Assembly: GCA_965279525.1 (NCBI GenBank)
Contig: CBDIIB010000005.1
Span: forward strand, 608,001 to 672,000
From: Tagaea sp.
GTDB lineage: Bacteria; Pseudomonadota; Alphaproteobacteria; CACIAM-22H2
Direction of reading: 5' to 3'
Length of the DNA: 64,000 nt
Made by a program: the position numbers and the translations under genes. This document shows positions 10,603-10,705 of the stretch, piece by piece. How positions within the stretch are numbered: the stretch's first letter is position 1; each line of letters opens with the position of its first letter. The notes beneath the pieces are model-generated. The model was not told where the DNA came from, searched no databases, and was given only the letters and a program-made list of their open reading frames with translations.

Positions 10603-10705
10603 GCCCCTGTGGTGCAATTGGAAAGACACGGCGGTGGCTACACCGCCGTCCCTAGAAGCTGGCCGGCTTCGAAGGACTGTGCAGGTTCGAATCCTGTCAG
10701 GGGCA
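10603..10705 (+). ncRNA. tRNA-like RNA (Leu-type body) lacking a canonical anticodon loop, with an extra-long variable arm
   Basis: Acceptor GCCCCTG/CAGGGGC + A; D arm GTG-CAATTGGAAAGA-CAC; GCGGTG-GCTA-CACCGC (4-nt loop); V arm of ~33 nt; T arm GCAGG-TTCGAAT-CCTGT. Confidence 0.75.

Follow-up and report, generated by a model that had tools for sequence, protein, structure and literature searches.

The gene studied here, T2, lies on the plus strand of a 64,000-nucleotide (nt) stretch of Tagaea sp. DNA (contig CBDIIB010000005.1, positions 608,001 to 672,000; hereafter, the window). To judge from its sequence, it looks like a derivative of the transfer RNA (tRNA) tRNA-Leu(UAG) in a family whose anticodon loop has been freed from the rules of decoding, with the window copy as the extreme case. 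It is secure that T2 is a real, structurally selected and horizontally mobile gene for an irregular tRNA of the leucine type. The full reading favoured here, in which our confidence is evenly poised, places it in a small family of irregular class-II tRNAs that descends from tRNA-Leu, with a product that would be processed, probably leucylated and non-decoding, and would act through its body.

According to this model, T2 and the tRNA gene T1 would share a transcript, which may arise by read-through of the gene upstream; RNase P and 3′ processing would then release T2, and CCA would be added to it. Folded into an L shape, it would be recognised, and probably charged, by the leucyl-tRNA synthetase (LeuRS), and because no pairing with a codon is possible, it would exert its effect via the tRNA body. 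Our best guess is that T2 serves the mobile cassette in which it resides as a non-decoding leucine acceptor or as a decoy RNA, which might, for example, engage enzymes or toxins aimed at tRNA-Leu or at the tRNA elbow, with T1 as a partner that would still present a selected loop. Natural tRNA genes that combine a charging-competent body with a drifting or collapsed anticodon loop are rare, and little is understood about them. Should T2 be made and charged, its product would represent a natural non-decoding leucyl-tRNA, and T1 and T2 together would be relevant to the ways in which mobile elements act upon translation or tRNA-directed defence.

The T2 Gene and Its Fold

An earlier, sequence-only reading of this DNA had assigned acceptor, D, anticodon, variable and T arms to T2, and all five were recovered (Table 1). 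The minimum-energy structure predicted by RNAfold (−53.7 kcal/mol) is the same cloverleaf, including nine pairs at the ends, with a fold z-score of −3.78, and equally good folding was reached by one of 200 shuffled sequences. A search with Rfam and with a custom covariance model, which that reading had proposed, was positive on both counts, returning three structure-conserving homologues and a match to the Rfam tRNA model (RF00005) from end to end of T2 (model positions 1-71; 33.8 bits, E = 0.0028 for the window), 4.8 bits above the gathering score of 29 bits. Two of the homologous copies score 36.4 and 32.5 bits with the same model, and no Rfam family except tRNA reached its threshold in the window. 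ARAGORN did not call T2 when the window was scanned.

The acceptor stem could be lengthened by two pairs, which would turn the 7/5 arrangement of acceptor and T stems into 9/5. The sequence-only reading had noted this extension, which turned out not to be conserved, as the two pairs are missing in the copy from Inquilinus limosus MP06 and only partly possible in the copy from the metagenome contig L269. Directly 3′ of the gene the sequence reads CCC, not CCA, so that 3′ trimming and CCA addition would be needed.

Table 1. Features of the window and of the related loci (window positions, unless another locus or contig is named).
Feature	Location	Strand	Description
T2	10603-10705	+	103-nt irregular class-II tRNA-Leu-type gene; 7/5 acceptor/T stems; A73 at 10705
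T2 acceptor stem	10603-10609 / 10698-10704	+	Two further pairs possible, out to 10601 / 10706
T2 D arm	10612-10629	+	3-base-pair (bp) stem; 12-nt loop with GG
T2 anticodon arm	10630-10647	+	7-bp stem; 4-nt loop (GCTA; GCUA in the RNA) at 10637-10640
T2 variable arm	10648-10677	+	30-nt two-part helix: 4 bp, 3 × 3 internal loop, 6 bp, 4-nt loop
T2 T arm	10681-10697	+	5-bp stem; carries TTCGAAT
T1	10492-10578	+	87-nt class-II tRNA; leucine-type D arm, long variable arm, A73; loop GTTGGAT, anticodon UGG
Hairpin	10459-10485		GC-rich, conserved, just 5′ of T1; 7-nt loop
Tail	10706-10776	+	Conserved after T2; third TTGGAT at 10730-10735
P0001	9940-10446	+	168 residues; long N-terminal helix, C-terminal winged helix; unnamed family
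Low-GC insert	9722-10857		~1.15 kb; carries P0001, hairpin, T1, T2 and tail
DUF4340 gene	8654-9721		Conserved; ends at left edge of insert
Left direct repeat	9707-9721	+	15 nt; 3′ end of DUF4340 gene with stop codon
Right direct repeat	10858-10874	+	15-nt core at 10860-10874; 17/17 identical to 3′ end of DUF4340 gene in nearest relative (G012)
T2, Inquilinus limosus MP06	L160 5064-5166		84.9 bits, E = 2e-17 (covariance model); 6-nt loop with UAG within it
T2, L253 (Proteobacteria metagenome-assembled genome)	L253 886-985		90 bits (covariance model); 7-nt loop on normal 5-bp stem, UAG mid-loop, G in place of U33
T2, L269 (metagenome contig)	L269 1431-1535		70.8 bits (covariance model); 7-nt loop on 6-bp stem
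Six ARAGORN-only tRNAs	G000 C2:259638, C3:361035, C4:593580, C5:749716, C5:967024, C5:1705998		84-96 nt

Conservation of the Family and Selection on Its Stems

A pattern that joins the D loop of T2 to its T loop across their unusual spacing was used to scan 185,579 species genomes, and matched 109 stretches. All of these were scored with covariance models built here (80 with R1 and 29 with R2), and two proved to be true relatives of T2, namely those of I. limosus MP06 and of the Proteobacteria metagenome-assembled genome (MAG) at locus L253. The third homologue, L269, was retrieved by a protein-based metagenome scan, in which a 4-sequence alignment was the query and which gave four loci. The same cassette order is kept in the window and in the three homologous loci (hairpin, T1, T2 and a tail of ~70 nt), with a T1 homologue just upstream of T2 in every one of the three, and therefore a tandem in 4/4 cassettes.

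The T2 family is rare within the collections searched. A covariance-model search of 43 other genomes of the Inquilinus family found no member, and model R1, applied to 20 other genomes of the genus of the window, retrieved ordinary tRNA-Arg alone (31-33 bits) and no T2. When the DNA of 40 relatives was searched with the T1-T2 region, the 5′ half of T1 alone was matched, and only weakly. Patterns specific for T2 or T1 had no match in viral contigs, the plasmid collection held no match to the DNA of the Inquilinus cassette or to P0151 (the Inquilinus homologue of the upstream protein P0001), and the phage collection held none to P0001 itself.

Changes on both sides of a pair were found in 7 of the 30 T2 pairs across the four copies (5/30 with three sequences), on which basis the stems are judged to be maintained by selection, and not to be decaying, as the sequence-only reading had argued from their full pairing. 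In the alignment fitted to the model, standard pairs occupy 97.4% of 117 cells. At least one compensatory pair is present in five of the six helices, including both helices of the variable arm, and the 5-bp anticodon stem is the one that has none. This level of covariation was matched by none of 500 shuffles, and when the partners were slid by 1-3 columns as a control, 35-51% of the cells were paired and the number of compensatory pairs dropped to 0-1. The anticodon stem has a sixth pair that the model does not include; in L269, this U-A pair is replaced by C-G.

The Anticodon Loop

A 7-nt loop presenting a leucine anticodon (NAG or NAA) was looked for in the window T2, and a 4-nt GCTA loop was found, with which T2 is predicted to be unable to present a normal anticodon and, consequently, to decode. 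If the pairs G26:C44 and G32:C38 (canonical numbering) are left out of the drawing, a 6-nt loop on a 5-bp stem results. The anticodon stem has 6-7 bp in three of the four copies. UAG is retained only in the L253 and Inquilinus copies, and since this core survives in two homologues, the ancestral anticodon was probably UAG. With loops of 4, 6, 7 and 7 nt, the term "anticodon-less", under which T2 had been introduced by the sequence-only reading, is appropriate for the window copy but does not extend to the family.

Leucine Identity and Charging

According to section 12 of PMC9976931, the identity of tRNA-Leu for the Escherichia coli LeuRS depends on A73, A14, A15-U48, G18G19 and A20a, the anticodon and the variable arm being unneeded, and removal of the anticodon arm does not abolish the charging of tRNA-Leu. 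In T2, A73 is present at the end of the gene, and the hinge of the molecule, numbered by hand, shows A14, G18G19, A15 together with U48 and, in the region of 20a, an A. Its D loop reads CAATTGGAAAGA, and the base before the T stem is a T. All four T2 copies have A73, U48 and GG in the D loop, and A73 also occurs in all four T1 genes. As these identity elements are present and LeuRS ignores the anticodon and the variable arm, the charging of T2 by LeuRS is plausible on sequence grounds. Moreover, the T2 covariance model scores canonical tRNA-Leu genes at 49-59 bits, which fits an origin from tRNA-Leu.

The minimal tRNA-Leu substrates of the E. coli LeuRS provide a precedent. A tRNA-Leu body that lacks a working anticodon arm is leucylated as long as A73 and the contacts between D and T loops are intact (Larkin et al. 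2002, as related in section 12 of PMC9976931), and both are intact in T2. Those substrates, however, are laboratory constructs, whereas T2 occurs in nature as a conserved gene, and its variable arm is enlarged. In the host genome, the canonical tRNA-Leu(UAG) (G000 C3:514370-514454) shares with T2 the letters of the D stem, the GG of the D loop, A73 and a class-II variable arm, but differs by its 7-nt loop, its variable arm of ~13 nt and its encoded CCA.

T1, the Hairpin and the Tail

T1 ends 24 bases upstream of T2, is called tRNA-Pro(UGG) by ARAGORN and reaches 47 bits with the Rfam tRNA model. The host genome holds a complete canonical tRNA set, which includes a separate tRNA-Pro(UGG) and five tRNA-Leu genes, so that both T1 and T2 are extras. 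The encoded CCA was considered as a marker of foreign origin and dropped, because the host's own tRNA-Pro(UGG) also lacks it. If T1 were charged by LeuRS, leucine would be inserted at CCA or CCG codons, making T1 a candidate proline-to-leucine mistranslator.

The 7-nt loop of T1 is identical in the window and in L253, where it is carried by different, compensating stems. Between the close copies of Inquilinus (GCU) and L269 (AUC), on the other hand, the loops are wholly different on identical flanking stems. The hairpin that precedes T1 shows compensatory changes in its stem, and its 7-nt loop is the same 7-mer as the T1 anticodon loop in the window and L253 only, with both stems differing in L253. 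It resembles an intrinsic terminator of the minus strand and not of the plus strand, on which it has no U-tail. A kissing-loop complementarity between the loops of T1 and T2 was considered and discarded as inconsistent across the cassettes.

The word TTGGAT is contained in the hairpin loop, in the T1 anticodon loop and in the tail, three plus-strand copies within 270 nt. The whole window has nine copies on both strands, four of them in the insert that carries the cassette (10470, 10525 and 10730 on the plus strand and 10137 on the minus strand). This repetition pattern was not seen in the cassettes of Inquilinus and L269.

Genomic Context and Mobility

The cassette resides in a stretch where the content of G and C (GC) falls from ~0.70 to 0.50-0.61 right after the stop codon of a DUF4340 gene, and recovers near position 10860. 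This low-GC stretch is read as an insertion of ~1.15 kb. The match of the right direct repeat to the gene end of the nearest relative is as expected for a site-specific insertion that rebuilds the end of the gene in which it lands. The DUF4340 gene is present in 14 of the 15 sampled genomes of the genus, none of 13 scanned loci has a tRNA within 1.5 kb of it, and P0001 was not found in 20 other genomes of the genus. No recombinase was found within the insert.

Mobile or toxin-related genes adjoin the related cassettes: a pair of RES toxin and Xre antitoxin genes in Inquilinus, and an IS1595-type transposase gene that abuts the tail in L253. An IS1595 transposase also precedes the gene of a P0001-family protein at locus L272. 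From the low-GC insert with its repeat, the lack of matches in the related genomes searched and these neighbourhoods, the T2 cassette is judged to be horizontally mobile and located in accessory DNA, usually behind a small winged-helix protein.

The Upstream Protein

The sequence-only reading had suggested the protein encoded upstream, P0001, as a partner of T2, but this association is not fixed. The L253 cassette follows a protein without a detectable relation to the P0001 family (hhalign probability 0.3%), and irregular tRNAs are found just downstream of the protein gene in four of the eight P0001-family loci read (window, Inquilinus, L269 and L272), with none beside it in the other four (L151, L270, L271 and L278). 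Hence, the RNA cassette can occur without the protein, and the protein without the cassette. A hairpin also occurs at P0001-family loci that have no tRNA.

P0001 belongs to a family with 177 relatives (E ≤ 0.001) among 1.84 billion representatives. It has no Pfam match and nothing significant in NCBIfam or PHROGs, and a word-based protein search returned P0001 alone. In its AlphaFold2 model (pLDDT 83.5), a winged helix is preceded by a long helix. Foldseek gave no match in the PDB at E ≤ 0.001, the matches being weak and generic (Rok, Fur, CRP, Z-alpha and the SelB winged helix, all at E ≥ 0.009), and the Atlas yielded unnamed clusters and weak winged-helix leads only, such as AbiEi_4 at 0.89. 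Other strong matches to the family came from one of 400 genomes sampled from the class, one of 49 genomes of the order, and none of 401 genomes from the phylum of an Acidobacteriaceae MAG; no tRNA was present at the loci obtained from these sampled genomes.

Two further observations concern this protein family. An AT-rich inverted repeat with words like TTGATTCGCAAT lies just upstream of P0001 (9895-9925) and of its Inquilinus homologue (L160 4300-4335), where it may serve the winged-helix protein as an operator; in Inquilinus and L269, the tail 3′ of T2 contains a similar word as well. At L272, a different irregular tRNA (3026-3102; 77 nt, of class-I length, Ser-ACU by ARAGORN) with a mismatched anticodon stem and an encoded CCA is located behind a P0001-family member of 35% identity.

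Alternative Explanations

Several points weigh against a processed, leucylated and non-decoding T2. Its transcription, processing and charging are all predicted from the sequence, and the role of decoy or acceptor is one that we infer. A73 and the D-loop elements could have been inherited rather than selected, and the loop of 4 nt could reflect very recent damage to a gene that normally decodes, given the 7-nt loops of two homologues. The family has four members that form two close pairs, so that the covariation counts represent few events, and an alignment fitted to the model leans toward structure. Furthermore, no tRNA-targeting enzyme is encoded in the insert, and the repeated TTGGAT hints at a logic of DNA or protein binding of which the model makes no use.

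The alternative that survives best, although we consider it unlikely, is that the window T2 is a freshly inactivated pseudogene, produced by a small deletion in the loop, in a family of irregular but decoding tRNAs that would insert leucine either as missense or at cognate codons. The 7-nt loops of L253 and L269, the former on a 5-bp stem and with a central UAG, are what such a family should display, and the loop of the window is indeed the shortest of the four. Nevertheless, the window copy is also the best paired, with 30/30 model pairs intact. The Inquilinus loop departs from 7 nt as well, and the change in loop length is hence recurrent, while the G at position 33 of L253 makes even the 7-nt loops non-canonical.

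A more far-reaching reading, which we regard as improbable, takes the whole series of hairpin, T1, T2 and tail for a new kind of mobile RNA device, in which two leucine-tRNA scaffolds would display exchangeable specificity loops to be read by a partner and not by the ribosome. It builds on the 7-mer of the T1 loop, which recurs in the hairpin loop and, shortened to a 6-mer, in the tail, a repetition that two diverged cassettes share. A winged-helix protein could be the partner, or else a nuclease or a nucleic acid of complementary sequence, and the tRNA bodies would provide stability, processing and perhaps a leucyl group. If this were true, the cassette would be a tRNA-shaped regulator or guide, not an adaptor.

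Two other explanations dispense with a function of the tRNAs. In the first, T1 and T2 serve as punctuation for RNA processing, the cuts by RNase P and at the 3′ side leaving an upstream mRNA capped by the hairpin, and the released pieces being functionless. Such a role would account for anticodon loops that do not matter, and read-through into T1 is plausible, as the hairpin abuts T1 in 4/4 cassettes and no U-tail follows it on the plus strand. We regard this proposal as improbable, however. It would not explain why two tRNAs are needed, nor why a long variable arm is conserved, A73 is kept in 8/8 genes and the T1 loop is shared by the window and L253, and tRNA-free loci of the P0001 family have a hairpin as well. 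In the second, for which the chances appear similarly slim, the cassette acts as DNA, providing sites for the winged-helix protein or a recombinase, or the attachment region of an integrative element, with the tRNA genes as passengers. The density of plus-strand TTGGAT, the 7-mer that the hairpin and T1 loops share in L253 and the repeat of 15-17 nt of the host gene end that bounds the insert would agree with it. Against this stand the compensatory changes in the T2 helices, which argue for selection on RNA structure, the lack of the motif pattern in Inquilinus and L269, and an insert without a recombinase.

It is very unlikely that T2 still decodes by means of an unusual loop. An 8-nt loop containing CUA can be drawn on a 5-bp stem, and CUA or a four-base anticodon could be presented in this way, but the two extra pairs that would have to remain open are predicted to form, one of them covaries in L269, and neither the sequence nor the length of the T2 loop is conserved. 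Finally, a chance tRNA-like fold or an Rfam false positive, which the small Rfam margin (4.8 bits) and the blindness of ARAGORN might suggest, is hardly tenable and was ruled out by three homologues at E ≤ 1e-15, covariation and conserved synteny.

Comparison with Known Systems

The known systems closest in kind to T2 are the allo-tRNAs and the polycistrons of irregular tRNAs. For the irregular bacterial tRNAs termed allo-tRNAs, serine identity is associated with G73. The assignment of T2 to these tRNAs was rejected on account of its 7/5 split, its leucine-type D arm and its A73. Allo-tRNAs have a long variable arm, a lengthened anticodon stem and highly diverse anticodons, which their charging enzyme ignores; they lie near toxin-antitoxin genes or transposable elements, and several have been judged translation-inactive or possibly regulatory (Mukai et al. 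2017, PMC5389517). T2 resembles them in its 30-nt variable arm, an anticodon stem longer than 5 bp and a setting of toxin-antitoxin or mobile genes, and its anticodon would likewise be free to vary under a synthetase that ignores it. Contrary to the 8/4 or 9/3 split of acceptor and T stems, the tRNA-Sec-like structure and the potential serine identity of the members tested, T2 combines a 7/5 split with a 3-bp D stem and 12-nt loop of the leucine type, A73 and a 4-nt anticodon loop.

The irregular tRNA polycistrons from soil metatranscriptomes (tRNA0, tRNA1 and tRNA2), described in section 16 of PMC5389517, are arranged in tandem, have 7/5 or 8/4 stems and odd anticodons, and adjoin toxin-antitoxin genes, and some of them are charged yet unused in translation. 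The T1-T2 tandem, with its RES-Xre or IS1595 neighbours, is similar in these respects. The polycistrons were nevertheless assigned to Acidobacteria and carry histidine-type or U73 features, a comparison that sets T1 and T2 against the description in PMC5389517 only. No description of a leucine-type tandem cassette like T1-T2 was found in the literature, and the supplements of PMC5389517 might hold relatives.

T2 also differs from transfer-messenger RNA (tmRNA), which joins a tag reading frame to a tRNA-like domain; neither ARAGORN nor Rfam found a tmRNA in the window. In bacterial Y RNAs of the YrlA type, it is the Ro-binding stem that the two ends make, with the tRNA-like module placed between them. 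Since the 5′ and 3′ ends of T2 form an acceptor stem, the analogy with Y RNAs drawn by the sequence-only reading fails on architecture, and no Y RNA family was matched in Rfam.

A pattern in which a D loop of the leucine type is separated by an overly long middle from GGTTCGAATCC occurs in at least 118 viral stretches, many of which are tRNA-like genes of 95-117 nt that lie in phage tRNA arrays and are missed by ARAGORN. Some of these have no anticodon stem, and others combine a 6-bp anticodon stem with an 11-bp variable arm; examples among loci L033-L112 are L099 680-778, L098 4113-4229 and L061 3498-3600. They are not close to T2 (24-43 bits). Together with T2, these oversized leucine-type genes mark a blind spot of annotation, as T2 and many of them escape ARAGORN.

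In the host genome, six tRNAs called by ARAGORN only, with odd anticodons (ctt, atc, tcg, tat, gat and cacg), were considered as relatives of T2 and rejected. They are probably false positives, because none of them is matched by the Rfam tRNA model even at E ≤ 1. Elsewhere in the window, between a DUF4440 gene and a class II ribonucleotide reductase gene, a palindromic GC-rich unit of 24 nt is present twice (11334-11427) and forms a 37-nt inverted repeat, which looks like a repeat of the repetitive extragenic palindromic (REP) type.
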